From Parcubacteria group bacterium Gr01-1014_8 (GTDB lineage Bacteria; Patescibacteriota; Minisyncoccia; Phycocordibacterales; UBA2100), in assembly GCA_007376385.1 (NCBI GenBank), contig VMGC01000002.1, positions 128,001-192,000 on the forward strand: a stretch of 64,000 nt of DNA. Reading direction: 5' to 3'. The position numbers and the translations under genes were made by a program. Under the pieces are notes generated by a model that saw nothing but the letters and a program-made list of their open reading frames with translations, made no database searches and was not told the DNA's origin. Positions within the stretch are counted from its first letter, which is position 1. The number at the start of each line of letters is the position of its first letter. Shown here one piece after another: positions 588-64,000 of the stretch.

Positions 588-596
588 GAACCTCAG

Positions 597-704
597 TATA
601 CCCCATGAGATAAAGCATTTATCGTATCTCTCCAAATAATTTCCAGGCTAAAAGTCTATTAATCGGCTGAAATTGTAGATTTTTTTTATCTCACGGGGTA
701 TACC
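597..704. repeat. Palindromic-arm element copy 1 (arms TATACCCCATGAGATAA / TTATCTCACGGGGTATACC) in a divergent intergenic region
   Basis: 19-nt inverted arms separated by an AT-rich spacer of about 70 bp. The same arms occur at 36203-36310 and 61348-61452. The left arm lies 10 nt from the Gfa ATG on the minus strand. Confidence 0.6.
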
Positions 705-1952: not shown

Positions 1953-2015
1953 CCCGAACACACGAAGAGCACAGGCAACGAGCAATATGATGAGCACTAT
2001 GGACAAACACAGAAT

Positions 2016-2195
2016 GAAAGGTTTCAACCTCCGGGGCAAGCCCTGGACTCTGGGAAACGAGCACCGCTCGTTTCCCAAATTCCGCGGCCTGTCTGCGTGC
2101 ATCGCACAGGCAGGCAAGCCGCGGGGTTTTGAACCTTTGCTGTCTGTGTCGCTTCCTCAGGCAAATGTACCTTTTCAGAGGAAGCCCAACCAGGT
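2016..2195 (+). repeat. Stop-codon-associated structured repeat, long variant (copy E)
   Basis: Begins TGAAAGGTTTCAACC. Shares more than 60 nt at near identity with 29920-30010, and a 3' module (GCAAGCCGCGGGGTTTTGAACC..GCTTCCTC) related to copies at 17242, 30611, 38291 and 59684. Contains perfect hairpins, for example GAAACGAGC-ACC-GCTCGTTTC. Confidence 0.6.
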
Positions 2196-16808: not shown

Positions 16809-17243
16809 ATGGAAGACAGGCCCTTTGTCGGTATTGGCGTAACGATACTTAAAGATGGAAAAATTCTCCTCGGCAAAAGAGTATCAACGTATGGGACCGG
16901 AGAATATCAAACGCCTGGCGGACATCTTGAGCCTAAAGAAGCTTTTGAGGCATGTGCGCGGCGAGAAACCTTGGAGGAGTGCGGACTCGAAATAGGCTCA
17001 ATCCGTTTTCAATTTGTAGCAAATGCCGTAGGGTATGGTCTCGTGCATTACGTTCATATTGGTTTGATAACGGAATGGAAGGCAGGTGAACCTAAAAATC
17101 TTGAACCTACAAAATGCGAAGGATGGGATTGGTACTCTCTTGACGCATTGCCGGAGCCTCTTTTTGTATACACGAAATGGTCTATAGAGGCACATCAAAC
17201 AGGACTCAATTATTTCGATAGTGAGGCCCGACCAGCGAAATAA
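16809..17243 (+). CDS. NUDIX hydrolase
   Basis: Nudix box GGHLEPKEAFEACARRETLEECGL. Confidence 0.8.
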   Translation: MEDRPFVGIGVTILKDGKILLGKRVSTYGTGEYQTPGGHLEPKEAFEACARRETLEECGLEIGSIRFQFVANAVGYGLVHYVHIGLITEWKAGEPKNLEPTKCEGWDWYSLDALPEPLFVYTKWSIEAHQTGLNYFDSEARPAK

Positions 17244-17397
17244 AGGTTCCTCGGAGCTTGCTCCGAGGTATTATGGAGCTCGCTTCGCTCGCGCAGTCTC
17301 GCAGCAGAGCTGCGAGGTATTGAACCTGTGTTTGCTCCTCGGCACGGAAATGCAACAGAGTACTTTTGCATTTCTCTCGCAATGCTCGCAAATAAAA
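17242..17397 (+). repeat. Stop-codon-associated structured repeat (copy A)
   Basis: Starts at the NUDIX stop codon (TAAAGGTTCC). Contains a CCTCGGAGC-TT-GCTCCGAGG hairpin, then GAACCTGTGTTTGCTCCTCGGCACGGAAATG, and a terminal GAAATGCAA..TTGCATTTC hairpin. Reverse-complement match to 30611-30690. Confidence 0.65.
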
Positions 17398-29390: not shown

Positions 29391-29921
29391 ATGCGTCCTG
29401 ATACTATGGTTGTAGAAAAATACAGAGACGTCATGAAGCTTCCGCACGATATAGAAGCCGAGCTGGACGGTGCGCCTCTGTTTGAAAATTTGGAAGCTGC
29501 AATGGGGACACTTGAGCTCGAGCATAAACGCCGTCGCAACCTTTTAGAGCACGCTGGGAAGGCAGAACGTCTCAACTACCCTGATAAGGCAACTGCGATA
29601 AAAGCAGCGATAATGAATGGAAGGTCAGCAGCAAAAGAAACAGCTGCGTGGGAGGATTTTACGCAGTCGAATCCTTCTGCAGAACAGGCGGCAATAGTTC
29701 TAGCGCACGTCTCTCATTTTAGGTCCGCGAAACCGACGCTGCTCGATATGGCAATTGATTTCTTTCTTCTTCGTATTCAGGAGGTTACTGATGCGAAAAA
29801 ATCAAGAGAGATAGTGGCTCTCGCTGCAAATGCCATTCGCAGCAGGCATCTGGACGATCCCGAAAAAAAAGGATATTTACGGAGACTGCAACTCTTAAAT
29901 GGAGTGGGCGAGGAAAAATGA
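29391..29921 (+). CDS. Hypothetical protein
   Basis: ORF. Its stop is embedded at the start of repeat copy F. Confidence 0.35.
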   Translation: MRPDTMVVEKYRDVMKLPHDIEAELDGAPLFENLEAAMGTLELEHKRRRNLLEHAGKAERLNYPDKATAIKAAIMNGRSAAKETAAWEDFTQSNPSAEQAAIVLAHVSHFRSAKPTLLDMAIDFFLLRIQEVTDAKKSREIVALAANAIRSRHLDDPEKKGYLRRLQLLNGVGEEK

Positions 29922-30058
29922 AAGGTTTCAACCCCCAAGGCAAGCCCTGGACTCTGGAAAACGAGCACCGCTCGTTTCCCAAATTCCGCGGCCTGTCTGC
30001 GTGCATCGCACAGGTACACATATATCGGCGGCATTCACCGTGGTACACTGGCACTCCC
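29920..30058 (+). repeat. Stop-codon-associated structured repeat, long variant, truncated (copy F)
   Basis: TGAAAGGTTTCAACC..GCAAGCCCTGGACTCTGG..AAACGAGCACCGCTCGTTTCCCAAATTCCGCGGCCTGTCTGCGTGCATCGCACAGG, near-identical to 2016-2110. Confidence 0.6.
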
Positions 30059-30610
30059 ATGAACACAACGATTACGACAGGGTGGCTGAAGTTTGTCATA
30101 GGATGGACAGCTGTGTTCCTATTCCGCTTGATACCATTCAGACCGCCGAATTTTGAGCCAATGTTGGCGACGATCATGCCGTTCTCAAAGCGATACGGCG
30201 TTGTGGGGAGCTTTTTGTTCGGATTCCTCGGAATTGTTCTCTACGATGCAGTAACGTCCGGCTGGGGGATATGGACACTTGTAACGTCCGTCTGCTACGG
30301 CCTGTTGGGTGTCGGAGCATATTTTTTCTTTAAGAATCGTGAGGCAACGGCAACACATTTTGTGATGTTCGGCGTCCCGAGTACGGTATTGTACGACGCT
30401 GTAACGATGATGATAGGACCCCTCTTCAATGGACAATCTTTTGCTGCGGCGCTCATAGGGCAAATTCCATTCACCGTCATGCATCTTCTTGGAACCATTG
30501 TATTTGCAACACTTCTCAGTCCCGCTTTATACCGCTGGGTCGTTCAAAATGATGTTTTGGAATTTTCTGTTCTATGGATGCAGGTTCGCTCGTTGATCGG
30601 CACTCGTTGA
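30059..30610 (+). CDS. Small polytopic membrane protein, possibly an ECF/S-component-like transporter subunit
   Basis: Five hydrophobic helices, 183 aa. ATG at 30059 taken because the upstream part of the track ORF is repeat sequence. Confidence 0.4.
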   Translation: MNTTITTGWLKFVIGWTAVFLFRLIPFRPPNFEPMLATIMPFSKRYGVVGSFLFGFLGIVLYDAVTSGWGIWTLVTSVCYGLLGVGAYFFFKNREATATHFVMFGVPSTVLYDAVTMMIGPLFNGQSFAAALIGQIPFTVMHLLGTIVFATLLSPALYRWVVQNDVLEFSVLWMQVRSLIGTR

Positions 30611-30690
30611 AATTACTCCTGCTTTATTTCCGAGCCGAGGAGCAAACACAGGTTCAATACCTCGGAGCTTGCTCCGAAGAACCTTTATCT
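30611..30690 (-). repeat. Stop-codon-associated structured repeat (copy B, inverted)
   Basis: Reverse complement reads AAAGGTTCTTCGGAGCAAGCTCCGAGGTATTGAACCTGTGTTTGCTCCTCGGCTCGGAAAT. Confidence 0.65.
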
Positions 30691-31262
30691 TTGCGAGGGC
30701 GAATAAATACAAATATATCATTCGCCGAGTAGGTGTCATCGGAATTTGCTCGAAGCTCGAGTTGACGTTGTCCCGGAAGAAGAAATCGCATGGGACCAGC
30801 GATAGAAGAAAGTCCAAAAACATGAGACGTATGGGCGCTGACTGGAATAGCTTGCATACCAAGTACCAGGTGTTCGCCAGGAGGTTGATTACGATATTGG
30901 ATACGAAGCAATGGGCCTACTTGAGGTGGACATAATTCGAGCCCATGTGCCACAGCAATTTCACAAATATATTTGTAGAGTCCCGTGCCATGCTTTATTT
31001 TGTCGTAATCGAAACCCAGGCTTCGTGCTGACAGTGTCACTAATTCTACTTCTCTGCTTTTTGGCGCGTCTTGAAATGATGCGGTTTCAAGGAGTTGATG
31101 CGCGTCTTGAGTGATGTAACATCCAGCATCATTGAGCTTCTTCCGGAAAGACGATGCGGATTCCGAATGGGCAGGAAGCATGAGGCGCATGAGAACTGGC
31201 AATTTCTCTATTGATGTATCAGCATGAGCCGTATCCGTATTGGACTTGGGATAGTTTTTCAT
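30654..31262 (-). CDS. Hypothetical protein
   Basis: ORF with an ATG start. Contains Cys, His and Asp candidates but no confident family assignment. Confidence 0.35.
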   Translation of the reverse strand: MKNYPKSNTDTAHADTSIEKLPVLMRLMLPAHSESASSFRKKLNDAGCYITQDAHQLLETASFQDAPKSREVELVTLSARSLGFDYDKIKHGTGLYKYICEIAVAHGLELCPPQVGPLLRIQYRNQPPGEHLVLGMQAIPVSAHTSHVFGLSSIAGPMRFLLPGQRQLELRANSDDTYSANDIFVFIRPRKDKGSSEQAPRY

Positions 31263-36202: not shown

Positions 36203-36346
36203 GTGTACCCCATGAGATAAGGACCCGCTATAGGCTATTCACAGGAAGCTACTTTTTGAAAGAAGAATTACTCTAGCGAACGCCACCCGGTCTATCTCAC
36301 GGGGTGTACCCCAGAGAGTAAAGACTCGCTACCGGCTATTCACAGA
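36203..36346. repeat. Palindromic-arm element copy 2, with an internal 44-nt direct duplication
   Basis: Arms GTGTACCCCATGAGATAA (36203-36220) and TATCTCACGGGGTGTAC (36293-36309). The unit GTGTACCCCATGAGATAAGGACCCGCTATAGGCTATTCACAGGAAG is repeated at 36303-36346. The left arm lies 13 nt from the ZIP ATG. Confidence 0.6.
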
Positions 36347-36717: not shown

Positions 36718-37977
36718 ATGACGTTGTTACGTTTGGCACGTGTGGGAGGTGTTGCGGCTTTTGCTGTTCTCTTGTTCACACTCGTTTCGTTTGTGGGAAA
36801 CCAGCGTCTTGCTTACGCAGATGAGGTGCCCGTTTCGGGCTCTGACATTGTGTGCGACACGTATCGTCAACTGCAGGAACAGGGATTGCCGATCCCTCCA
36901 GGACTCGATGTGAGCGGTTGTGAAGGAGGTGGGGGAGGCGGCGGTGGTGGCGAACCGCCACTACCAACGGTTACAGAGTGCATAGACGGTATTGATAACG
37001 ACGGAGATGGACGTACCGATTTTCTTCCGATATACGGCGACCCCGATTGTGATAACTTCTCTGATGATAGCGAGGCGGCGAGCGGAGGAGGCGGCGGTGG
37101 CGGTTCTACTCCAGCATGTGCCGATGGCATTGATAACGACGGCGATGGGCTCGTAGATAGTGTTGACCCGGGCTGCTCAGACACTTCCGATACTGACGAG
37201 GCCGATCCTACGGGGGGCGGCGTAGGAGGTGGTGGAGGTGGCGGAGGCGGAGGCCCCGCAGCGGCGTGCGAGGACAGCATAGACAATGACCTCGATGGTC
37301 TTAAAGACATGCAAGACCCAGGGTGTGAAAATGCTTCTGACAACGACGAAACCAACGGTTCTGGTGGAGGAGGAGGCGGCGGGGGAGGTGGCGAGGCAGC
37401 GACGACAACGGCACCAACTCCAGAAATTCTCGGCGCATCAACGCCAGCACAGGAACTTTCGTGCGACTCCTACCTGACGGCATTCATTCGCTTCGGCGGA
37501 AAGAATGATGCAGACCAGGTTATGCGCCTCCAGAAAGTACTCAAAGATTACGAGAAGGCGGATGTGAATGAAAATGGTACCTACGATGCTGCAACTCTCA
37601 AGGCAGTACATGCATTCCAAACAAAGTATGCCGATGAAATTCTTACACCATGGGGTATCAAGAGCTCGACAGGCTATGTGTATCTCACGACGCGAAAGAA
37701 AGTGAATGAAATTCGGTGCGAGAATAAGAAGACATTTCCGCTTTCGGAAGAAGAACAGAAGAAAGTCGAGGAAACACGGGTTTCTGCGGCAGTCAGGGAC
37801 ATCGGCACAGACGCATCTCCCGCAAAACCAGCGGAGCCAGCAAAACCTGCAGTAGTAAAAGCTAAAGATGTAACGGACAGGACCGCCGATTCATCGTCAA
37901 AAGACGAGACAGTGCAGGTGAGCGGATTGAAGAGGGTGTGGGATTTCCTCGGCAGAATGTTCAACAGAGCGCGCTAA
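36718..37977 (+). CDS. Secreted protein with poly-Gly spacers, three Ca-binding-like Cys-DxDNDGDG repeats and a C-terminal peptidoglycan-binding-like domain
   Basis: Signal peptide. Repeats CIDGIDNDGDGRTD..DPDC, CADGIDNDGDGLVD..DPGC and CEDSIDNDLDGLKD..DPGC. C-terminal LQKVL..NGTYDAATLKAVHAFQ resembles PG_binding_1. Confidence 0.5.
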   Translation: MTLLRLARVGGVAAFAVLLFTLVSFVGNQRLAYADEVPVSGSDIVCDTYRQLQEQGLPIPPGLDVSGCEGGGGGGGGGEPPLPTVTECIDGIDNDGDGRTDFLPIYGDPDCDNFSDDSEAASGGGGGGGSTPACADGIDNDGDGLVDSVDPGCSDTSDTDEADPTGGGVGGGGGGGGGGPAAACEDSIDNDLDGLKDMQDPGCENASDNDETNGSGGGGGGGGGGEAATTTAPTPEILGASTPAQELSCDSYLTAFIRFGGKNDADQVMRLQKVLKDYEKADVNENGTYDAATLKAVHAFQTKYADEILTPWGIKSSTGYVYLTTRKKVNEIRCENKKTFPLSEEEQKKVEETRVSAAVRDIGTDASPAKPAEPAKPAVVKAKDVTDRTADSSSKDETVQVSGLKRVWDFLGRMFNRAR

Positions 37978-38290
37978 ACGAAATCAAATCGTACAGAAAC
38001 GACGCCATATTCTGGCGTCTTTTTTGTCCTATACCAACTATGACACTCTGTCCTTAGTGGTGCGCATAGATTCTGCAGCGTTGACAATAATGGACGGACT
38101 TTGTACGATGCGCGCCGTTAGAGACAAACATCTCCCGTTCCTTGTCATTTTTTGTAGGAGGTCAGGGCGGGCCCAAAGCCGACAGCTTTCACGCTGGTTT
38201 CCCTAGGTTTTGGGCCCACCCAGGATTCCTACATGATCACGTAAAATATTATACAGGGAAGATAAAAAAGGCCGCGTTGAGCGGTTTTTT

Positions 38291-38404
38291 TATTGGCGAC
38301 GTAGAGCGAGTGAAATGAACGTGTACTCATGTTCATTTCCGAGCCGAGGAGCCAACATAGGGTCGAATGCCCCGCGGCTTGCCCGCGGAATGAATACCCT
38401 TTAT
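38291..38404 (-). repeat. Stop-codon-associated structured repeat (copy D, inverted, not gene-adjacent)
   Basis: Reverse complement reads AAAGGGTATTCATTCCGCGGGCAAGCCGCGGGGCATTCGACCCTATGTTGGCTCCTCGGCTCGGAAATGAAC..GTTCATTTCACTCGCTCTACGTCGCCAATAA. The tail matches copy C (CACTCGCTCTACGTCGC). Confidence 0.65.
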
Positions 38405-38829
38405 TGCAACTCATTATAAAAAAATATCAATGGTGTTTGACAACAAGCATGAATACGTATCGAAATACTTTTCCACATGGCTAATTCATTGACACTCCAC
38501 GAGAACGCGCGATAATTCGCCTACGTTTCGTCGCGTGCGCAAAATGCGATAAAGCGAGGGGAACCAGCGGACAATATGTCCGTTGAGAACATTTTTTTTA
38601 CTCACAGCTGTCTTTTTGAAATGAAGAGACGAGGCATCGCTGACCGTGATGCGTCGTTTTTTATTATGCAAATGGACGACTGAAGTCCATGGAGCGGCTT
38701 ATTTCCATGAAATGAGCCGCTCCGTGAACTGCAAGGTTCATGAGAAAGGTCGAGTTCTGCATTGCGCCGTCCGTACGGAGGCACAATGTCAGGTTTATCA
38801 AAACTTATCAACATGAAAAATTCAAAGAT

Positions 38830-39726
38830 ATGACTAAGACTATGAAAATCGGTGCAGTTCTTGCAACAAGCGCGATGGTTTTGTCGCAGTTCGCAGCAAT
38901 TCCTGCATACGCATGTGAGGACTGGTGCTGGGGCGAAGGAAGCTCTGACGACAACAGCGTCTACATAAAGGTTTCGAACTCAGGCACAATCTACAACGAA
39001 ACTAAAGCTAAGGCAGACACTGGCGACAACGATGCCGGCGGAAGCTACGGCGGCGACGGCGGCTCTGCTGGAGACGGTGGCGACGGCGGCGAAGCTGATG
39101 TGGAAGGCGGTGTTAATTGGTGCGGAGAGTGCAGCGACGGATCGGACAGCGAAGCAAACGGAGGCGACGGCGGCAACGGCGGCGACTCGAACGGCGGCGA
39201 TGCAGGTCCGGGTGGGCTCGTAGACACTGGGGATGCTGACGCAAACGCAGGAACAGTCAACACACTCAACACGACCGATATCGCAGTTGAGGGATGTGGC
39301 TGTGAGGATGACCAGGATGAGTGCGGATGCATTCCTCCATGGCTCCGACGCGACGTTGACAACAGCGTCCGCGTGAAGGTCCACAACGACGGCACGATCA
39401 ACAACGAAACTAAAGCTAAGGCAGACACTGGCGACAACGATGCCGGCGGAAGCTACGGCGGCGATGGTGGCGGCGATTGTCACTGTGACGGCGGTGGCGA
39501 CGGTGGCGACGGCGGTGACGCTGAAGTTGGCGACGACGAAGAGGGCTGTGGTTGTGAATGGGACATCGGTGGCGGCGGCACAGCAAACGGCGGCGACGGC
39601 GGCGACGGCGGAGACGCTGACGGCGGCGACGGCGACGTAGGAGGCACGATCCGAACGGGCGACGCTCGATCGGACGCTGGCACTGTGAACGTGATGAACA
39701 CGACTCTTGTTCGTGTAACTCGCTAG
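38830..39726 (+). CDS. Secreted Gly/Asp-rich repeat protein
   Basis: Signal peptide MTKTMKIGAVLATSAMVLSQFAAIPAYA. Two near-identical ~20-aa repeats (NETKAKADTGDNDAGGSYGGDGG) encoded by exact 60-bp DNA repeats. TGDADANAGTVN motifs shared with the next gene. Confidence 0.45.
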   Translation: MTKTMKIGAVLATSAMVLSQFAAIPAYACEDWCWGEGSSDDNSVYIKVSNSGTIYNETKAKADTGDNDAGGSYGGDGGSAGDGGDGGEADVEGGVNWCGECSDGSDSEANGGDGGNGGDSNGGDAGPGGLVDTGDADANAGTVNTLNTTDIAVEGCGCEDDQDECGCIPPWLRRDVDNSVRVKVHNDGTINNETKAKADTGDNDAGGSYGGDGGGDCHCDGGGDGGDGGDAEVGDDEEGCGCEWDIGGGGTANGGDGGDGGDADGGDGDVGGTIRTGDARSDAGTVNVMNTTLVRVTR

Positions 39727-45894: not shown

Positions 45895-46068
45895 CACCAC
45901 TCCTTCGGGGTTGGGTGAAAGTCCCAATCGGCGGTATAGCCCGCGAGTTCTTAGGGACACGATTTGGTGAGATTCCAAAGCCGACCGTACAGTCGGGATG
46001 AAAGAAGGAAGCGAGGCACCCTTGTTGGATGCTTGCGTGGTAACCCCGATGGATCGGGGTTTTTTATT
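45895..46068 (+). ncRNA. FMN riboswitch (RFN element) with an SD-sequestering/terminator hairpin
   Basis: TCCTTCGGGGTTGGGTGAAAGTCCCAATCGGCGGTATAGCCCGCGAG...GGTGAGATTCCAAAGCCGACCGTACAGTCGGGATGAAAGAAGG matches the RFN core. Followed by CCCCGATGGATCGGGGTTTTTT, directly upstream of ribE. Confidence 0.85.
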
Positions 46069-46659: not shown

Positions 46660-47099
46660 AAAAGATCGGCGATATACGGATCGGCATCATCGGAAGCTCT
46701 TTCCGAGAGAATATCACTGCAGAACTTGAAAAACGTTGCGTGAAAACACTTCGAGTACGAGGGATATCAAAAGAACACATTCACCTTGTACGTGTTCCTG
46801 GTGCCTTCGAGATACCGCTTGTTGCAAAAAAAATGGCAATGCAGAGAACATACGACGCGCTCATAACATTTGGTGCGATCCTTAAAGGAAAAACGTACCA
46901 CTTCGAACAAATAGCGAATGAGTGTGCGCGCGGCTGTGCCGAGGTGTCGCGTGCGTACGATATTCCTATTATCTTCGAGGTGCTCGCGGTCTACGATCTG
47001 AGGGATGCGCTCGAACGCGCAACACGACCACATGAAAACAAAGGCGTCGAAGCGGCTGAATCTGCTTTAGCCATGATCAAGCTCATGTCGTCGCTATGA
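46656..47099 (+). CDS. ribH: 6,7-dimethyl-8-ribityllumazine synthase
   Basis: IGIIGSSFRE..VPGAFEIP..GAILKG motifs. Confidence 0.85.
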   Translation: MKKIGDIRIGIIGSSFRENITAELEKRCVKTLRVRGISKEHIHLVRVPGAFEIPLVAKKMAMQRTYDALITFGAILKGKTYHFEQIANECARGCAEVSRAYDIPIIFEVLAVYDLRDALERATRPHENKGVEAAESALAMIKLMSSL

Positions 47100-48322
47100 A
47101 TCACTTTTCCACCATACCGGAGGCGATCGCTGAAATAAAGAAAGGAAAGCTCCTCATCGTTGCTGATAGTCCAAAGCGGGAGAATGAAGCCGATTTTTTT
47201 ATTCCAGCTGGGGGAGTAACGCCCACAGCCATCACAACCATGGTTACGTACGGCGGCGGCCTTGTCTGTGTTGCTATTACGAGCGCACAAGCCAGGCGTT
47301 TGCACGTACCTCTCATGGTTTCGCCCGGCGAGAATACTGAAAAAACGGGCGTAAATTTTACGGTGTCGGTCAATGCAAGACGAGGTATCACAACGGGAAT
47401 TTCTGCATTCGATCGAGCGAAAACGATCCGCATTCTCGCTGATCCGCACTCGAATGAACAGGACATAGTAAAGCCTGGGCATGTCTTCGGTCTCGTTGCT
47501 CGTGACGGCGGTGTGCTCGAACGGGAGGGACATACTGAAGCTGCAGTCGATCTCTCGCGCCTTGCGGGGAAAATGTCTGCCGGCGTCTTGTGCGAAATTG
47601 TTGGAAGAAACGGACACATGGCGAAACGAGACGAACTCATCCGGCTGTCGCGGAAGCTTGATATAAAGATGATAACAATACGCGACCTTGCGCGCTACCT
47701 TCGTGCACATCCTCTGCCGTTGCTCCCCAAACATCATGGTCTCGTGCGCGTCTCCTCTGCCGCGCTGCCGACCGCATACGGCACGTTTACTGTCGTCGCT
47801 TACAGATCTATTTTGGATAATCGAGAGCATGCAGCTCTCATTCTTGGGGAACCGCGGGGAAACGCCTTGGTGCGCATTCATTCCGGATGTCTTACGGGTG
47901 ATGCTCTGTTTTCACTCCGTTGCGACTGCGGCTCGCAGCTGGCGAAAGCCATGCGAATGGTGCAAAAAGCGAAGCAAGGTGTCATTGTGTATCTAAATCA
48001 GGAAGGCAGGGGGATCGGTCTTGGGAACAAGATCAAAGCATACGCGCTGCAGGATGAGGGATACGATACGGTAGAGGCGAATCACAAGCTGGGGCTGCCT
48101 GCCGATCCGCGCAGCTATGAGGCGGCGGCGGATATTCTCAAAGATCTCGGCATACGCGATGTGCGCCTTCTCACGAATAACCCCGAAAAGGAGAAGCAGC
48201 TTTCACATTTCGGCATAAGAATTACGCAGCGCATTCCGCTCGAGATCCCGCCGAATGGTGTGAATGCAGCATATCTCAAGACGAAGAAGCAGAAACTAGG
48301 GCATACGCTCTCCAATGTGTAG
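47096..48322 (+). CDS. ribBA: Bifunctional 3,4-dihydroxy-2-butanone-4-phosphate synthase / GTP cyclohydrolase II
   Basis: RENEADFF (RibB) in the N-terminus and CDCGSQL..GRGIGL (RibA) in the C-terminus. Confidence 0.9.
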   Translation: MNHFSTIPEAIAEIKKGKLLIVADSPKRENEADFFIPAGGVTPTAITTMVTYGGGLVCVAITSAQARRLHVPLMVSPGENTEKTGVNFTVSVNARRGITTGISAFDRAKTIRILADPHSNEQDIVKPGHVFGLVARDGGVLEREGHTEAAVDLSRLAGKMSAGVLCEIVGRNGHMAKRDELIRLSRKLDIKMITIRDLARYLRAHPLPLLPKHHGLVRVSSAALPTAYGTFTVVAYRSILDNREHAALILGEPRGNALVRIHSGCLTGDALFSLRCDCGSQLAKAMRMVQKAKQGVIVYLNQEGRGIGLGNKIKAYALQDEGYDTVEANHKLGLPADPRSYEAAADILKDLGIRDVRLLTNNPEKEKQLSHFGIRITQRIPLEIPPNGVNAAYLKTKKQKLGHTLSNV

Positions 48323-48325
48323 CGT

Positions 48326-49417
48326 ATGCGCACATCCTCTACCGACTCTACCGACGAACGATTTATGCGCGAGACATTTCGACTCGCAAAGAAAGGCGTC
48401 GGTTGGACAAACCCCAATCCGATGGTTGGCGCCGTGATTGTGAAGAATAGGAAAATAGTAGGAAAGGGTTACCACAGAAAGCTCGGTTTGCCGCATGCAG
48501 AAGTCGAAGCCTTGAGTGACGCGGGTACGGCGGCAAGGGGCGCCGTGCTCTATACGAATCTTGAACCGTGCAGTCATTTTGGCAGAACACCGCCGTGTGC
48601 GAACGCGATCATTCAAGCGGGCATCCGTCGGGTCGTTTGTGCCACGCGGGATCCGAATGCGTTCGCTCGCGGCGGTGTCGAGAAATTGCGGCAAGCTGGT
48701 ATTAAGGTCTCGACTGGTATTCTTGAGAAAGAGGCGCGTGACCTAAATGAGGCATTTTTCACATTCCATGAAAAGCAGCGACCATTCGTGGCTCTCAAAT
48801 TTGCAGCAAGTCTTGACGGAAAATTGGCGACACGGAGAGGAGATTCGAAATGGATCACAAATGAACGTGCTCGCGCGCATGCTCGACGCTTGCGCGGTGC
48901 GTATCAAGCCGTTCTTATCGGGATCGAGACAGTTATTGCGGACGACCCGCATCTTGGTGTACGCACGAGAGGTCTGAGAGATCCGCTTCGTATTGTTCTT
49001 GATTCGGATCTTCGAATTTCACTTTCTGCGCGCGTGCTGCGTGATTCGCATGTCGTCATTGCAACAACAAAGAATGCCTCGGCGCGAAAAAGGAAACAAC
49101 TTACGCATCGTGGCATCCGCGTGCTGACATTCAGCGGCGGCCGCATTTCACCCGAGGCGCTTTTCGCGGCGCTCCGGAAGATGAACGTTATTAGCGTGCT
49201 CGTCGAAGGTGGCGGCGCAGTGTTGGGGAGCATTATTGACGCCGATAGTGCAGACAGGATTTATGTCTTTTATGCTCCTATCCTCATTGGTGGAAAACGC
49301 GCCGTCGTGATCGGCGGGCGGGGAGCTGACCGCATTTCGAATGCGCTTCGCGTTGCACAGGTCTCTGTCCATCATTTTGGTGACAATATTCTCGTGACGG
49401 GGTCTACCCGGTCTTGA
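48326..49417 (+). CDS. ribD: Riboflavin biosynthesis deaminase/reductase
   Basis: HAEVEAL..PCSHFGRTPPCA zinc deaminase motif and a C-terminal reductase domain. Confidence 0.85.
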   Translation: MRTSSTDSTDERFMRETFRLAKKGVGWTNPNPMVGAVIVKNRKIVGKGYHRKLGLPHAEVEALSDAGTAARGAVLYTNLEPCSHFGRTPPCANAIIQAGIRRVVCATRDPNAFARGGVEKLRQAGIKVSTGILEKEARDLNEAFFTFHEKQRPFVALKFAASLDGKLATRRGDSKWITNERARAHARRLRGAYQAVLIGIETVIADDPHLGVRTRGLRDPLRIVLDSDLRISLSARVLRDSHVVIATTKNASARKRKQLTHRGIRVLTFSGGRISPEALFAALRKMNVISVLVEGGGAVLGSIIDADSADRIYVFYAPILIGGKRAVVIGGRGADRISNALRVAQVSVHHFGDNILVTGSTRS

Positions 49418-57669: not shown

Positions 57670-59685
57670 ATGGCAACATTCAAACTCGAATCATCATATA
57701 AGCCTGCTGGGGACCAACCGCAGGCAATACAAGCCCTGTACGATGGGCTGAAAAAAGGTAAGCGGGATCAGACGCTTCTTGGCGTAACTGGGTCCGGCAA
57801 GACGTATACGATGGCGAGTATCATCGAAAAAATCGGCAAGCCAACGCTTGTCATTGCGCACAATAAGACGCTTGCGGCGCAGCTCGCATCCGAATATCGC
57901 GAGTTCTTTCCCACGCATGCGGTCCACTATTTCGTCTCATACTACGACTTCTATCAGCCGGAAGCATATGTGGCAGTTTCCGATACGTACATAGAGAAGG
58001 AAGCGCAGGTAAACGAGGATATCGAACGTTTGCGCCATGCTGCTACGCAGGCACTCTTAACGCGAAAGGACGTTATCGTCGTCGCTTCTGTTTCTTGCAT
58101 TTACGGTCTTGGAAGCCCCATTGAATATGAAAAAGTTAATTTGAAATTGCAGAAGGGAGAAACAATGACGCGGACAGGACTTACAAGAAAACTCGTATCA
58201 ATGCATTTTGAGCGAACCCCTGGGGATCTGTCTCCGGGAACATTTCGGCCACTCGGAGCAGCCGTTGAGATAATGCCGGCGAATGAGCGAGTCATTTATC
58301 GCATCGGCCTCTCGAGCGGAAAAATCGCGAACATCGAGGACATTGACCCGATTACACGTGTTATTAAAGGCGAAGAAGAAGCTGTATTTATTTTTCCCGC
58401 ACGCCACTATGTTACGCCGGAGAATGTCGTGGAAGCGGCGCTTGCGGACATTGAGGCTGAACTCGAGGCACAATTGAAGCATTTGAACGACGGCGGAAAA
58501 ATACTTGAAGCGGAACGTTTGAAGCGGCGCACACGGCAAGATCTCACGATGATACGAGAGTTTGGATTTTGCAGCGGCATCGAGAACTACTCGCGTCATT
58601 TTGATAGGCGAAAACCAGGAGAGCCACCTTACACGTTGCTTTCGTACTTCCCGAAAAAGGCGGACGGTACTCCGGATTTTCTTACGGTCATAGACGAGTC
58701 GCACGTGACGGTGCCGCAGATAGGAGCGATGTATGCAGGGGATAGGGCGAGAAAATTGACCCTTATCGAGCATGGGTTCAGACTTCCCAGCGCAGTAGAT
58801 AATCGTCCGCTTAAATTCGAGGAGTTTTTGGAAAATACCGGACAGACGCTGTATACGAGCGCTACGCCATCTCTGTATGAATTGAATAAAAGCGGGAAGC
58901 CAGTCGAAATGATAGTAAGACCGACTGGCCTCTTGGACCCAGAGATACTAGTGAGACCGATAATAGGGAGAGGAGACTACGAAGGCCAAGTCCGCGATTT
59001 CATCAAAGAAGCAGAGGCGGTAACAAAACGAGGCGCGCGGTCGCTAGTGACCGTCCTCACCAAGAAAATGGCAGAAGACCTTGCGCAATTTCTCGTAGAA
59101 CGCGGAATAAAAGCGCGCTATGTGCATAGCGACGTCCTTACTATCGAGCGCATTGAGATTCTCACAGATTTTAGGAAAGGTGTGTTCGACGTCTTGGTAG
59201 GTGTGAACTTGCTTCGTGAAGGATTGGACCTCCCTGAAGTTGAGCTGGTGGGAATTTTAGATGCTGATAAAGAAGGATTTCTTCGCTCGGAAACCTCACT
59301 TATACAGACCATGGGTCGCGCCGCACGAAATGTGAATGGACGTGTGCTTCTATACGCAGACAATATTACTGGCTCAATGGAGCGGGCAATAGGCGAGACG
59401 AATCGCCGCAGAGGGGTACAGGCAGAGTACAACAAAAAACACGGCATTACGCCGAAAACGATAGAAAAAAAGATACGAGATATCACGGGCGATATTGCGA
59501 GGGTGCGAGAACGCGCAATTAAGGAGCTAGCGGACATGGATACTGCTGCGTACGGCGGCGATAAGAGGAAAATGATAAAGGATAAACGCCGCCAGATGCA
59601 TGAAGCGGCCGATAGATTGGATTTCGAGACGGCGGCACTGCTGCGCGATGAGATACGCATCCTTGAACACGGCGTTTCAAAATAA
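57670..59685 (+). CDS. uvrB: Excinuclease ABC subunit B
   Basis: GVTGSGKT, helicase motifs, beta-hairpin region and a C-terminal UVR domain (DFETAALLRDEI). Confidence 0.95.
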   Translation: MATFKLESSYKPAGDQPQAIQALYDGLKKGKRDQTLLGVTGSGKTYTMASIIEKIGKPTLVIAHNKTLAAQLASEYREFFPTHAVHYFVSYYDFYQPEAYVAVSDTYIEKEAQVNEDIERLRHAATQALLTRKDVIVVASVSCIYGLGSPIEYEKVNLKLQKGETMTRTGLTRKLVSMHFERTPGDLSPGTFRPLGAAVEIMPANERVIYRIGLSSGKIANIEDIDPITRVIKGEEEAVFIFPARHYVTPENVVEAALADIEAELEAQLKHLNDGGKILEAERLKRRTRQDLTMIREFGFCSGIENYSRHFDRRKPGEPPYTLLSYFPKKADGTPDFLTVIDESHVTVPQIGAMYAGDRARKLTLIEHGFRLPSAVDNRPLKFEEFLENTGQTLYTSATPSLYELNKSGKPVEMIVRPTGLLDPEILVRPIIGRGDYEGQVRDFIKEAEAVTKRGARSLVTVLTKKMAEDLAQFLVERGIKARYVHSDVLTIERIEILTDFRKGVFDVLVGVNLLREGLDLPEVELVGILDADKEGFLRSETSLIQTMGRAARNVNGRVLLYADNITGSMERAIGETNRRRGVQAEYNKKHGITPKTIEKKIRDITGDIARVRERAIKELADMDTAAYGGDKRKMIKDKRRQMHEAADRLDFETAALLRDEIRILEHGVSK

Positions 59686-59790
59686 AGGTTCCTTGAAGCA
59701 AGCTCCGAGAGCTCGAACTCGTGTTTGTTCCTCGGCTCGGACATGCATATAAGTACACATGCATATCACTCGCTCTACGTCGCAAATAAG
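59684..59790 (+). repeat. Stop-codon-associated structured repeat (copy C)
   Basis: The uvrB TAA is embedded in TAAAGGTTCCTTGAAGCAAGCTCCGAGAGCTCGAACTCGTGTTTGTTCCTCGGCTCGGACATG..CACTCGCTCTACGTCGCAAATAA. Confidence 0.65.
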
Positions 59791-59821
59791 GCATAATGAA
59801 AAGCAATTTAATACTGGTGCC

Positions 59822-60745: not shown

Positions 60746-60763
60746 GTCAGCGATTGGAGTGAT

Positions 60764-60955
60764 CTACTCCCGGTCAAAGACCCACACGTACAGTACAAAC
60801 CAGCCGATGATGGTCCATGCGATGGCAAGATTGGTAAATATGACGCCGCCAGCGTTCGGATGGCGCCGTATCAAAGCCAGTATTCCGGGGAAAAAATACA
60901 CGTATGTAGCCATAGCCACGTAGAGATAAACCATGAAATGCAAAAAAAGCAACAT
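60764..60955 (-). CDS. Superinfection-immunity-like small membrane protein (Imm_superinfect family), paralog 1
   Basis: YFFPGILALIRRHPNAGGVIFTNLAIAWTIIGWFVLYVWVF matches the YxLPxIIAxxRxH...N...GWTxIGW pattern. Confidence 0.55.
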   Translation of the reverse strand: MLLFLHFMVYLYVAMATYVYFFPGILALIRRHPNAGGVIFTNLAIAWTIIGWFVLYVWVFDRE

Positions 60956-61080
60956 GTTAACGAGTGCCCTGTTCCACGTAGGTCAATGAGGGCAAACGAA
61001 CGTGTTACTGATCTGTAAGCGGATTCTACCAGTCCACCCGGGCAAAGGCAATTTTTTCGGTTGCCCATGAAAAAAATCGG

Positions 61081-61260
61081 CTAATTAGTACTTTGTCTGT
61101 CAAATACCCACGCGAACAAGACAAACCATCCAATGATGGTCCAGCCGATGGCGATGTTCGTAAAGAAAATACCGCCGGGACTAGAATGGCGCAGAATGAC
61201 AGCCAATATTGTGGGGAAGAAATACACGAACAACCCTCCCGCAACGTATGCGTATATCAT
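61081..61260 (-). CDS. Superinfection-immunity-like small membrane protein, paralog 2 (tandem duplicate)
   Basis: YFFPTILAVILRHSSPGGIFFTNIAIGWTIIGWFVLFAWVF. DNA is about 75% identical to paralog 1. Confidence 0.55.
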   Translation of the reverse strand: MIYAYVAGGLFVYFFPTILAVILRHSSPGGIFFTNIAIGWTIIGWFVLFAWVFDRQSTN

Positions 61261-61347
61261 GAGCAATTGTAACCACAAAGTCGAAGGTATCAAATAGACC
61301 ACTGTGAATTAGGGCGAATGGTTGGCTCTTTCGGCAGATACGAGAAA

Positions 61348-61452
61348 TGGTATACCCCGTGAGATAAAAAGGTCTCAAAATTATGCGGCAAGCGCACATG
61401 TACTCAAAATTCCTTTTTTTGCCTATAGTCACGGGCTATCTCATGGGGTATA
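61348..61452. repeat. Palindromic-arm element copy 3
   Basis: Arms GGTATACCCCGTGAGATAAAAAG and CTATCTCATGGGGTATAC flank a ~65-bp spacer. Lies between divergent immunity-like and uvrA genes. Confidence 0.6.
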
Positions 61453-61462
61453 CTCGTCCGTG

Positions 61463-61544
61463 TCCCCGGTACCACAAGTCCTTCGGACTTGACTACGGGG
61501 CAGGTAACCCCTCGGACAAGACGAGGGGCGAGGCTATTTGCATC
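61463..61544 (+). promoter_or_regulatory. Conserved 5'-leader hairpin with UUCG tetraloop upstream of uvrA
   Basis: CCCCGGTACCACAAGTCCTTCGGACTTGACTACGGGG, an extra CCCCTCG..CGAGGGG hairpin, then CGAGGCTATTTGCAT. Paralogous to 31380-31437. Confidence 0.5.
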
Positions 61545-64000
61545 ATGATAGAATCATCAAAAAATTCAGAAGGGCCAGGCAAGATCATCGTAAAGGGGGC
61601 GAGGACGCATAACTTAAAAAATATCAGCGTCGAGATACCTCGTAATAAAATGGTCGTCTTTACGGGGCTCTCGGGAAGCGGGAAATCGTCGCTGGCATTC
61701 GACACAATTTTTGCTGAAGGCCAGCGTAAGTACGTGGAATCGCTTTCCGCTTACGCGAGGCAGTTCTTACGTCAAATGCAAAAGCCCGATGTTGACGAGA
61801 TCAGCGGTCTTTCTCCTGCCATCTCTATCGACCAAAAAAGCCGCTCAAATAATCCGCGCTCTACCGTTGCGACGATAACGGAAATTTACGATTACCTGCG
61901 CGTACTGTACTCGCGTGTCGGACATCCCCACTGTCCCGTCTGCGGCCGAATAGTAAAAAAAATGTCGAATGAGGAAATTCTTGAGACCGTTTTGAAGGTA
62001 GTCGATGCAGCAAAAGCTTCAAAAAATGTCCCCAAGGGTAAGCACACGAAGGGAGTAACGGACGCAAAGGTACGCATAACCGCTCCGGTTGTCGTCGGAC
62101 GAAAGGGTGAATATTACCAGCTTCTGTACGACATGTTGAACAAGGGTTTTGAGAAAGTCATCATCGATGGTGAGGAGAAATCACTACGTGAGCGCATTGA
62201 GCTAAAAAAACATTTCAAGCACGATATAGATGTCGTTGTTGATGAGATATTCGTGAGCGAGTTCAAGGATGATGCGAAAGGCTCTCGCGAACGAGCAAGT
62301 GAATCCATCGAGCGCGCGCTCCATGAAGCCGAGGGTCTCGTAAAAATAATCGATCCTGAGGGCGGTGCGCATATCGTATCCGCAAAATTCATGTGTCCGT
62401 ATGATGGCTTTTCATTTCCCGAAGTTGAACCTCGGCTTTTTTCGTTCAATTCTCCATACGGAGCCTGTCCCACGTGCAATGGCTTAGGAACCAAATATTT
62501 TTTTGGAGATGAGCAGTGCGATACATGTCAGGGCGCACGTCTCCGAAGCGAAGCGTTGCATGTGTTTCTTGGGAGCGAAAAAAAGGAAGGCGCGCGGCAG
62601 AATATCGTGCAAGTAACAAGCATGTCTATAGCGAATGCTCGTAAATTCTTCGACGAGCTGGTATTAACGGAAAAGGAAAAAGAAATATCAAAAGTCGTCA
62701 TAAAAGAAATAGTAAACCGGCTCCAATTCATGCTTGACGTCGGTATCGAATATCTGACGCTTGATAGACGGGCAAATACACTCTCTGGCGGCGAAGCGCA
62801 ACGGATCCGCCTTGCTTCACAGCTTGGGAGCGGGCTTGTGGGTGCGCTCTATGTCCTCGATGAGCCGACCATCGGTCTTCACCAAAAAGATAACGACAGG
62901 CTTATTGAGACGCTTAAACATCTCCGCGAACTGGGAAATACTGTGCTTGTCGTAGAACATGACGAGGATACGATATTTGCCGCCGATTACATTGTTGATC
63001 TGGGACCCGGCGCCGGCACGCACGGCGGGGAAATAGTCGTAGCAGGCTGGCTTGAAGAACTCTTGACCGCCAAGACGAATAAGTCGGGCTCTAGGACCTT
63101 GGCGTATCTTCGCGACGAAACTCGGATCGAAATGCCGGAAAAACGACGTACGAACGACAAGGGAAAAATAAAAATTCGCGGAGCATCAAAATTCAATCTT
63201 GAAAAAGTGAATGTAGACGTGCCGCTTGGAAAATTAGTTGTTATCACCGGCGTTTCCGGTAGCGGGAAATCAACTTTTTTGTACGAAATCATGCATCGGA
63301 ATTTACTCGCCAGATTCGATAAACGATTTCGAAATGCAAAAACCTACAACGCAGCAGAGTTTACTGGAACGGAATACCTGGGCCGTTCGATACTCATTGA
63401 CCAGTCGCCGATAGGCAGGACGCCGCGCTCAAATCCCGCGACCTATACGGGGGCGTTCACGCATATTCGAGACATGTTCGCGATGAGCGAAGAGGCGCGT
63501 GCGCGCGGATGGGGGCCAGGCAGGTTCAGTTTTAACCGCAAGGGCGGGCGATGCGAAGCGTGCGAAGGGAACGGCATGGTCGCCGTTGAGATGCACTTTT
63601 TGCCGACGGTGTATGTCACGTGCGATGTGTGCGCAGGAAGACGTTTTATGAAGGAAACGCTTGAGGTGAAATTCAAGAAAAAAAGCATACACGATATTTT
63701 GAAGATGACCGTCGAGGAAGCGCTTACGTTTTTTACTGACATTCCAGCCATATCAGACCGCCTTAAAACGTTGAGCAATGTTGGACTTGGTTATCTTCAA
63801 TTGGGGCAGAGCGCAACGACACTCTCCGGCGGCGAAGCGCAACGCGTAAAAATAGCGTCGGAGTTGTATCGTCCGCATCAGACAAAAACGATGTACCTCT
63901 TGGACGAACCAACCGTCGGACTTCACTATGACGATGTGCAGAAGCTCATCGAAATTCTCCAACGACTCGTTGAGAGAGGGAACTCGGTAGTCGTTATCGA
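61545..64000 (+). CDS. uvrA: Excinuclease ABC subunit A (5' part; continues beyond the window)
   Basis: GLSGSGKSSLAFDTIFAEGQRKYVESLSAYARQFL, zinc-finger CxxC pairs and a second ABC module (GVSGSGKST). No stop before the window end. Confidence 0.95.
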   Translation, partial: MIESSKNSEGPGKIIVKGARTHNLKNISVEIPRNKMVVFTGLSGSGKSSLAFDTIFAEGQRKYVESLSAYARQFLRQMQKPDVDEISGLSPAISIDQKSRSNNPRSTVATITEIYDYLRVLYSRVGHPHCPVCGRIVKKMSNEEILETVLKVVDAAKASKNVPKGKHTKGVTDAKVRITAPVVVGRKGEYYQLLYDMLNKGFEKVIIDGEEKSLRERIELKKHFKHDIDVVVDEIFVSEFKDDAKGSRERASESIERALHEAEGLVKIIDPEGGAHIVSAKFMCPYDGFSFPEVEPRLFSFNSPYGACPTCNGLGTKYFFGDEQCDTCQGARLRSEALHVFLGSEKKEGARQNIVQVTSMSIANARKFFDELVLTEKEKEISKVVIKEIVNRLQFMLDVGIEYLTLDRRANTLSGGEAQRIRLASQLGSGLVGALYVLDEPTIGLHQKDNDRLIETLKHLRELGNTVLVVEHDEDTIFAADYIVDLGPGAGTHGGEIVVAGWLEELLTAKTNKSGSRTLAYLRDETRIEMPEKRRTNDKGKIKIRGASKFNLEKVNVDVPLGKLVVITGVSGSGKSTFLYEIMHRNLLARFDKRFRNAKTYNAAEFTGTEYLGRSILIDQSPIGRTPRSNPATYTGAFTHIRDMFAMSEEARARGWGPGRFSFNRKGGRCEACEGNGMVAVEMHFLPTVYVTCDVCAGRRFMKETLEVKFKKKSIHDILKMTVEEALTFFTDIPAISDRLKTLSNVGLGYLQLGQSATTLSGGEAQRVKIASELYRPHQTKTMYLLDEPTVGLHYDDVQKLIEILQRLVERGNSVVVI

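Follow-up and report, generated by a model that had tools for sequence, protein, structure and literature searches.

Within a 64,000-nucleotide stretch of Parcubacteria group bacterium Gr01-1014_8 (contig VMGC01000002.1, positions 128,001 to 192,000 of the forward strand; here called the window), six short stretches, A to F, were found to be copies of one repeat family. Copies A, C and D are complete, and copies B, E and F are broken. We consider it probable that the six are copies of a non-autonomous, non-coding mobile DNA element of the candidate phyla radiation (CPR, or Patescibacteria) that inserts by AATAAA-type sites. CPR genomes are about 1 Mb in size, very gene-dense and usually described as poor in mobile DNA. 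Our verdict on the element is that it is a new, structurally unusual, non-autonomous interspersed repeat, and it points to a mobilisation machinery yet to be identified.

The first-pass annotation of the window had listed six related elements, and all six were present in the places and on the strands it had given them. The module that it called near-invariant, GCTCCTCGGCTCGGAAATG, was matched four times with at most two mismatches (copy A at 17334, B at 30625, C at 59727 and D at 38334), compared to 0.00 matches expected in dinucleotide shuffles, and CACTCGCTCTACGTCGC was identical, without mismatch, in copies C and D. A covariance model of the 77-nt core of the element, run on the window with all filters off, gave full matches to copy D (97.4 bits, 38288-38364), copy C (87.8 bits, 59715-59791) and copy A (85.3 bits, 17322-17397), a partial match to copy B (25.2 bits, 30622-30655) and nothing else. 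The variable GC hairpins and the GAAATG..CATTTC hairpin described earlier were both seen. Copies E and F had been taken for a longer variant with an extra insertion; they do have 98 nt in common at 96% identity, but the supposed insertion is the ordinary three-hairpin 5' domain of the element, closed by its first helix.

The core model detected 96 copies, at 33-102 bits and with 76 distinct cores, in the 90 sources searched, and all records with a title were counted as CPR genomes. In a scan of 185,579 species, one genome each, the core was found in nine loci, eight of which have CPR titles (Paceibacterota, Kaiserbacteria, Saccharibacteria, Patescibacteria group and CG10_46_32). A metagenome scan gave 103 stretches with the core. 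Of three patterns run against viral contigs, two had no match, and the third had one chance match in a high-GC coding region, which scored nothing by the model. As far as sampled, the family is limited to CPR/Patescibacteria. Copies occurred at a density of about one per 15-50 kb, a figure that is biased outside the window because loci were chosen for containing the core; autonomous relatives with diverged ends would be missed by that choice. The ninth locus (L006, CAZSGI010000003.1) is titled 'uncultured Gammaproteobacteria bacterium'. A Parcubacteria protein matches its TyrRS at 98% identity and the other named matches are almost all to CPR, so that the bin or the label is probably wrong.

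Cores were almost identical outside one hairpin, P3, between lineages with 50% SecY identity. For an element to be shared almost unchanged by such lineages, either genes must flow across the radiation or the element must be selfish, very old and under tight constraint. The covariance model offers a lineage marker and a handle on strain-level variation.

No Rfam family matched the element at the gathering threshold, the sole match in the window being an FMN riboswitch elsewhere, and a permissive search with copy D (E up to 10) gave nothing relevant, its matches of 17 bits or less sitting on an adjacent terminator. A tRNA-derived short interspersed element had been raised as an alternative identity; ARAGORN found no tRNA or tmRNA anywhere in the window. 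The literature, searched by exact sequence and for CPR repeats and RNA motifs, gave no account of this element, which is apparently undescribed so far.

Structure of the repeat unit

The architecture of the unit was derived from copies in other genomes. It begins with AATAAA, continues with a helix (P1) around none to three variable GC hairpins and the 77-nt core, and ends in GCCAATAA(A)n. Units are 83-165 nt long; the 5' domain is optional and the core obligatory. The 5' boundary is (A)ATAAA, followed by P1 (for example GGUUC...GAACC). The hairpins inside P1 are GC-rich, often with C/UAAG or CUUG loops, and a GGUAUU spacer recurs among them. A two-base linker joins P1 to P2, in which UGUUGGC pairs with the element's own 3' end, GCCAAUA. 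Inside P2 lie an invariant UCCUC, a 3-bp helix (GGC/GCU) and the hairpin P3 (GAAAU...AUUUC), whose base is conserved and whose distal part is freely variable and accepts insertions. An invariant CUACGUC follows P3, and then come AATAA and an A-run of variable length. The 5' AAUAAA offers a second possible partner to the internal strand UGUGUU, and this pairing is predicted for the truncated copy B. Single-sequence folds of copies A, D, B and E match this architecture (z -2.8 to -6.3).

The compensatory stem changes that had been claimed from the window proved real. P1 occurs in at least eight complementary versions, including GGTTC/GAACC, GGGTA/TACCC, GGTGT/GCACC, GGGTC/GACCC, GGATA/TATCC and GATTA/TAATC. 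P2 alternates between TTGGC/GCCAA and TTTGC/GCAAA, and many such changes lie in P3. Across the 76 distinct cores, standard pairs were seen in 96.8% of cells, compared to 88.7% in shuffles and 35-62% with slid partners; fitting the alignment to the model inflates the percentage paired and not the double changes, which were seen in a MAFFT alignment. Ten of the 20 pairs changed on both sides (129 cells), and none of 500 shuffles reached any observed measure. One P2 pair was AU in 35 sequences, GC in 30 and UA in three. Absence of stem covariation had been named at the outset as an outcome that would undo the structured-repeat reading; covariation was strong, and the core structure is under selection. 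Two G-U pairs are fixed, and these would be A-C mismatches on the opposite strand, a hint that it is the strand as written on which folding counts. With these two set aside, pairs possible only in the sense strand (17) and only in the antisense strand (30) were regarded as equally rare. The element does not encode a small peptide, as no frame survives the stem covariation and the indels; the 'MKGF...' open reading frame (ORF) of copies E and F is the 5' domain read as protein.

Copy D (38288-38406, minus strand, 119 nt) is nearest to the family consensus, and its minimum free energy structure (-41.6 kcal/mol, z -4.20) is the consensus architecture. In copy A (17238-17397, plus strand, 160 nt; -56.7 kcal/mol, z -2.96), P1 pairs 17244-17249 with 17322-17327 around a 5' domain of two clear GC hairpins and a GGAGCTCGCTTCGCTCGC module, the fold of which is not settled. 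Its P2 pairs 17329-17335 with 17388-17394 in the compensated variant (UGUUUGC/GCAAAUA), and P3 lies at about 17345-17375. Copy C (59680-59791, plus strand, 112 nt) has a complete core and a single, decayed 5' hairpin. The fold of the whole of copy C was not better than shuffles (z +0.68), consistent with decay of that hairpin.

Among the broken copies, copy B (30611-30690, minus strand) is truncated on its 3' side. It keeps the 5' motif and P1 with a single hairpin, and its core breaks off halfway, after GGAAAT. Copy E (2013-2167, plus strand; -77.3 kcal/mol, z -6.33) has an intact 5' domain and a decayed core, and was missed by the model even with filters off. Its 5' motif is the TGA variant AATGAAAGG, and its P1, AAAGGUUU/GAACCUUU, closes around three perfect hairpins; the 5' half of its core is degenerate (GCTTCCTCAGGCAAATG) and the 3' half is gone. 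A 26-nt arm of copy E matches the hairpin region of copy D. Copy F (29917-30058, plus strand) is a 98-nt 5' fragment without a core: 29917-30014 is the part in common with E, and 30015-30058 is unrelated spacer. Its fold was no better than shuffles.

Insertion, orientation and gene ends

The earlier suggestion of a mobile element similar to a miniature inverted-repeat transposable element (MITE) or a REP sequence stood in the broad sense, with insertion polymorphism, near-identical copies, truncated and tandem copies and patchy spread. It did not stand for a classical MITE, as the element has no terminal inverted repeats. Comparison of orthologous loci, which had been recommended, showed an insertion difference at the one junction compared, that between uvrB and murB. 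The two genes are separated by 137 nt in the window, mostly copy C, whereas in the closest relative found (L013, UvrB 87% identical) the junction is empty and the genes overlap by ATGA. The UvrB of the window itself is 100% identical to that of Gr01-1014_8. The tyrS-uvrB-murB synteny is conserved in relatives. About 69 kb from three relatives gave no model matches, compared to three full, one partial and two fragment copies in the window. In two other relatives, the uvrB-murB spacer contains small ORFs instead of the element, one of 92 aa on the same strand (L014, 12093-12371) and one of 83 aa on the opposite strand (L015, 12228-12479); extra DNA seems to land repeatedly at this junction.

Copies within one metagenome were 96-99% identical over about 160 nt and had unrelated flanks, and the similarity of such near-identical copies was sharply bounded, extending from AATAAAG to GCCAATAAAAAA. 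Tandem or remnant-adjacent copies with one common AATAAA were seen (L087, L005/L079 and L045), as were internally deleted, truncated, 5'-only, core-only and tail-to-tail copies. Copies thus come and go between relatives and increase in number within genomes. Flanking genes were unrelated housekeeping genes without a functional theme, and occurrence was patchy over deeply diverged CPR lineages. A Logan assembly of the window's genome breaks inside copy F, 25 nt past the upstream gene; contigs from independent assemblies of that genome (L011, L012 and L123) end 24-53 nt past the genes preceding copies A and F, within these copies or shortly beyond them. Breaks at A and F are as expected for a dispersed repeat, and the family fragments short-read assemblies; such predictable breaks bear on the quality of metagenome-assembled genomes.

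Orientation showed no preference. The ratio of same to opposite orientation relative to the upstream gene was 30:31, 26:28 and 21:23 at three ORF-length cut-offs, with similar results for downstream genes; gene calls at these loci were greedy ORF sets and not the output of a trained gene finder. Within the window, four copies are on the plus and two on the minus strand, on a uniformly positive GC skew.

An intergenic position independent of gene orientation would also suit a binding-site repeat acting at the DNA level, where a nucleoid protein, a topoisomerase or a regulator would bind. Such a repeat would be kept for the organisation of the chromosome, and recombination, not transposition, would spread it. 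The density of copies and the absence of an associated transposase from the window and the loci agree with this, and REP and BIME sequences bind gyrase and IHF. We nevertheless judge a binding-site repeat extremely unlikely. Duplex sites need neither compensatory changes over 20 intrastrand pairs nor a free hairpin tip, the sharp identical ends and the tandem insertion of copies at the element's own 3' end indicate an insertion mechanism, and close relatives are without the element.

Several observations weigh against a mobile element. Exact-protein look-ups of flanking genes, made for empty-site alleles with near-identical flanks, returned only filled or broken contigs, and same-strain assemblies all carry copy C. 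With no such empty site recovered, AATAAA as target, as target-site duplication or as part of the element cannot be told apart. No transposase or recombinase gene was found in the window (Pfam, 30 window proteins), and no linked transposase recurred near 82 distinct copies, where only housekeeping families did (660 ORFs from 89 loci, all-against-all clustering and Pfam). As no linked enzyme was found, mobilisation in trans is assumed. The left-end hairpins vary in sequence and in number (0-3) and are absent in L061, L076, L057 and L028, unlike a left end recognised by a transposase. The invariant unpaired core nucleotides across lineages with 50% SecY identity could equally well serve a host function. 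The single-strand route of movement considered below predicts an orientation bias with replication, and the copies showed none when gene orientation (strand bias 59:16 in the window) was used as a proxy. Finally, an antisense copy occupies the secY-adk spacer of the ribosomal-protein operon (L028 4227-4303, minus strand; L049 10968-11040 and L056 3463-3535, both plus strand) in two genomes with 72% SecY identity. This copy could be an old retained insertion or the result of two independent hits, and it speaks against mobility if it is old. The secY gene of L028 takes its TGA stop from the element, whose 3' end is there read as its reverse complement.

The first-pass annotation had found the host gene's stop codon at the start of five of the six copies. 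We found an in-frame stop of a credible gene in three (A, C and F). Copy A has the 5' motif AAATAAA, of which TAA 17241-17243 is the stop of a NUDIX gene (16809-17243). Copy C lies between uvrB and murB, and TAA 59683-59685 is the uvrB stop; the true start of murB is probably the ATG at about 59823. In copy F, TGA 29919-29921 is the stop of a 176-aa ORF (29391-29921), and between this ORF and an ECF-S-component gene, which probably starts at ATG 30059, the copy takes up all of the spacer.

The other three copies are placed differently. The gene upstream of copy B (30654-31262, minus strand) is in another frame than the motif and runs 11 codons into the element, ending at the TGA of GTATTGAACC (30656-30654). 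A search of this gene for its native C-terminus found no homologues, leaving it an orphan. On its other side, copy B abuts the stop (30608-30610) of the convergent ECF-S gene. Copy E lies within an ABC transporter operon, where the ATPase gene ends at 1952, 62 nt ahead of the motif, and the first ATG of the permease (2165) is that of the element's 'AAATG', in the core remnant. Copy D is on the minus strand between two plus-strand genes and is without a credible upstream gene (a 25-codon ORF only). TATAAT lies about 13 nt upstream of its motif, and a hairpin and T-run resembling an intrinsic terminator lie directly downstream (about 38262-38287, minus strand). The genes on either side of copy D (36718-37977 and 38740-39726, both plus strand) encode low-complexity, secreted-looking proteins with G runs and DNDGDG or GGDGGDG repeats, contain internal DNA repeats of 408 nt and 48 nt, and gave a weak peptidoglycan-binding domain match as their sole domain match.

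Beyond the window, whether copies always abut stop codons had been put forward as a check, and this was true of a part only: by our tally, about 19 of about 35 sense-oriented copies use the TAA of the motif as the stop of an ORF of more than 100 codons, and the rest do not. Several other sense copies are read into. One gene (L007) gains 29 codons and stops at the TGA of UAUUGAACC; from its C-terminal sequence, we judged this gene to encode a putative tRNA 2-thiouridylase, MnmA. The proposed stop-codon target preference is therefore better put as a preference for AATAAA-type sites, since the 5' motif is kept in any orientation to genes and TAA is used as a stop in only about half of the sense copies. 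The 5' ATAAAG motif is also kept in antisense and stand-alone copies, which makes it a property of the element or its target and not a result of stop-codon use. Of the AATAAA sites in the window, with the elements' own motifs counted in, 49 are intragenic, three are at stops and three are intergenic. If non-coding sites are few and gene-breaking insertions are purged, a frequent seat on stop codons would follow, by an argument from plausibility. The best explanation of stop-codon fusion is that it follows from the AATAAA target, and not that it is a dedicated function. The element rewrites gene ends and lends stable hairpins to transcripts. Its effects on the host are secondary: genes gain new stops or short tails at the C-terminus, 3' ends gain stable hairpins, and the permease start at copy E gains a new context.

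The position at gene ends could instead be primary if the repeat were a cis-acting RNA module of 3' untranslated regions (3'-UTRs) that guards the mRNA 3' end, terminates or pauses transcription or acts at translation termination, in which case selection for that role would maintain it and its spread would be incidental. Three window copies and about half of the sense copies elsewhere begin on the stop of the upstream gene, and several copies lie between a stop and an intrinsic terminator (D, L082, L051 and L052). The structure is strongly conserved, with its two fixed G-U pairs, the unpaired core nucleotides are invariant across distant lineages, and co-transcribed repeats such as ERIC affect mRNA stability (PMC2229807). 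Against this, half of all copies either have both neighbours on the opposite strand or are placed between divergent genes, and the same junction in the closest relative is without the element. Of 76 copies, 9 were followed by a terminator-like hairpin with a T-run in the sense direction and 14 in the antisense direction; the corresponding count for a control region was 5 of 71. Host genes are of all kinds and, fixed G-U pairs aside, sense-only pairs are not commoner than antisense-only pairs. A 3'-UTR module is thus an unlikely account of the family. The element itself was also rejected as an intrinsic terminator, as it ends in an A-run and not a T-run and any terminator-like hairpin is a separate one. 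A promoter reading of the element was ruled out on sequence.

Copy D, which stands alone on the opposite strand with TATAAT upstream and a terminator downstream, has the appearance of an independent transcription unit. The family might accordingly consist of small RNA genes, trans-acting or guide-like, packed as independent units in a compact genome. Independent genes would show both orientations, covariation is strong, and -10-like hexamers lie upstream of the motif in L003, L006, L050 and L007 (TAAAAT, TAGAAT, TATAAT and GATAAT). However, no promoter is conserved at a fixed distance, the sequence upstream of AATAAA differing in all copies, even in those that are 96-99% identical, and most copies have no downstream terminator. 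Coding sequence runs into many copies from one side or the other (B, E, L007 and L028 among them), and it is common for copies to be truncated, to have internal deletions or to stand in tandem. Presence and copy number differ among close relatives. We regard small RNA genes as very unlikely. As primary explanations, the terminator or stability element and the small RNAs that the first-pass annotation had offered alongside a mobile element are both unsupported, with orientation near 50/50 and so few copies followed by a terminator.

Known repeats and a possible route of movement

By its behaviour, the element belongs with small non-autonomous bacterial repeats (cf. PMC2229807). Classical MITEs (Correia/NEMIS, RUP, ERIC/RU-1 and YPAL) have terminal inverted repeats, usually with a TA terminal dinucleotide, and target-site duplications (PMC2229807). 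The CPR element resembles them in being under 200 bp, non-coding, multi-copy and intergenic and in its ability to fuse to or end reading frames. The likeness extends to long stem-loops formed in transcripts by pairing of the 5' and 3' ends, and to the potential to alter mRNA stability (PMC2229807). A classical MITE was nonetheless rejected: when the 5' end of the CPR element, GGTTCCTCGG (or GGGTATT...), is set against its reverse-complemented 3' end, (T)TGGCGACGTAG, nothing beyond GG matches. Unlike those of classical MITEs, the ends match as GG...CC only, and the A-rich repeats that bound the element (AATAAA...AATAA) are direct, not inverted.

The BOX element of Streptococcus pneumoniae is built as boxA-boxB(n)-boxC, is confined to streptococci and has no known dedicated transposase. 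The two elements are alike in being short, non-coding and intergenic, in combining a conserved end module with a variable number of internal hairpins, in their stable predicted folds and in being co-transcribed with neighbours when in sense orientation. They are not known to have any sequence similarity, and the CPR element spans deeply diverged lineages. Unlike BOX, it has an obligatory 77-nt 3' core whose own end pairs internally, and is bounded by AATAAA...AATAA.

REP sequences are simple palindromes of 20-40 nt with a GTAG head, and REP/BIME and REPIN sequences are mobilised by RAYT proteins, which are IS200/IS605-like Y1 HUH transposases. These families, the palindrome-associated elements derived from IS200/IS605 (PATEs) and the CPR element have in common the absence of terminal inverted repeats, a hairpin on one strand, and a short boundary sequence with a 3' end resembling the sequence before the 5' end. 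All are high-copy, intergenic and often located just past stops, and all are mobilised in trans, which is assumed for the CPR element. Identity with REP/RAYT was rejected on account of the 83-165 nt unit, the two-helix core with invariant internal loops and the missing GTAG head; no RAYT or TnpA gene was seen in the window or recurring near copies. For PATEs, the ends and target agree: all recent copies have AATAAA at their start or directly before it and AATAA(A)n as their last letters, and tandem copies share AATAAA, which is compatible with such an origin and not proof of it. The similar subterminal hairpins that PATEs have at both ends, where TnpA recognises them, were not found, as the right end is conserved and the left hairpins are variable or absent. 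The element therefore fits IS200/IS605-derived elements only partly.

Mycobacterial interspersed repetitive units (MIRUs) form tandem, minisatellite-like arrays in the orientation of the operon and extend over the stop and start codons of the operon genes beside them; Rickettsia palindromic elements (RPE) insert in frame and are translated. Both are comparable to the CPR element as gene-boundary repeats that enter reading frames; copy B supplies a C-terminal extension and stop, and copy E a start context. The CPR element differs from both in its random orientation and in that most copies are outside coding sequence. Integron attC sites have the form R''(RYYYAAC)...R'(GTTRRRY) and lie at the 3' end of promoterless cassettes arrayed beside intI. 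They were rejected as a match, because the paired ends of the CPR element, UGUUGGC (5') and GCCAAUA (3'), depart from this consensus and its order whichever strand is read. Next to the copies are not cassettes but housekeeping genes whose synteny is conserved, such as tyrS-uvrB-murB and secY-adk-map.

For the mobile element that we favour, we propose that insertion would be site-specific, next to an AATAAA-type sequence that the 3' end of the element would recreate. This recreation of the target would explain tandem copies with one common AATAAA. As the target contains TAA, and intragenic insertions would be purged from compact genomes, surviving copies would gather at gene ends. There, the TAA of the motif would be, or would become, the stop, or the gene would read a few codons into the element and stop at an internal TGA. 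ATAAA was found before, and AATAA(A/C/G) at the end of, nearly every copy. The 5' and 3' motifs did not co-vary: L065 has ATAGA and ATAAC, L026 has ATAAA and ATAGA, and five copies have ATAAA and ATAAC. As the deviations are not joint, a duplication of more than 3-4 bp is argued against, and a TAA or ATAA duplication is still compatible.

The conserved core would be the part recognised by a mobilising enzyme supplied in trans. Our preferred guess for this enzyme's mode of action, and the weakest step of the proposal, is a single-strand HUH/Y1-type mechanism, similar to that of IS200/IS605 or RAYT. This guess draws on the lack of inverted repeats at the termini, on ends that repeat directly (AATAAA...AATAA), on the 3' end held by internal-guide pairing and on the capacity of UGUGUU to pair with the 5' AAUAAA as well.

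The invariant internal loops make the core a candidate for a new protein-nucleic-acid recognition module or a catalytic RNA. The 77-nt core might itself be an active nucleic acid, either a small ribozyme or a single strand of DNA or RNA that guides itself, and the repeat a minimal nucleic-acid-guided mobile element that has persisted across the CPR without a linked protein gene. UGUGUU would then pair with the preceding AAUAAA or with the element's own 3' AAUAA, picking both the target and the element's own boundary, in the manner of the internal guide of group I introns and of the pairing between guide and cleavage site at IS200/IS605 ends. We consider an active core highly improbable.

Other features of the window

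A second repeat, TATCTCAYGGGGTRTAC, was found six times in the window, compared to 0.01 expected. It is unrelated to the main element and forms three divergent intergenic pairs, with members about 90 nt apart: 596-612 (minus strand) with 687-703 (plus strand), 36203-36219 (minus) with 36293-36309 (plus), and 61350-61366 (minus) with 61437-61453 (plus). The repeat contains a -10-like TATAC, and resembles an operator or promoter motif arranged in pairs, or else a further small element with structure.

Past murB, about 3 kb (60750-64000) are without a plus-strand ORF of at least 80 aa, which is unusual in a dense genome. This region holds a 130-nt direct repeat of 75% identity (60773-60902 and 61099-61228) that looks like two paralogous small genes on the minus strand, and a 32-nt repeat occurs at 62772 and 63813.

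The FMN riboswitch (45897-46013, plus strand, 104 bits) lies upstream of a riboflavin operon, in which Pfam identified ribBA (47096-48322) and ribD (48326-49417). Two ORFs lie between the riboswitch and ribBA.

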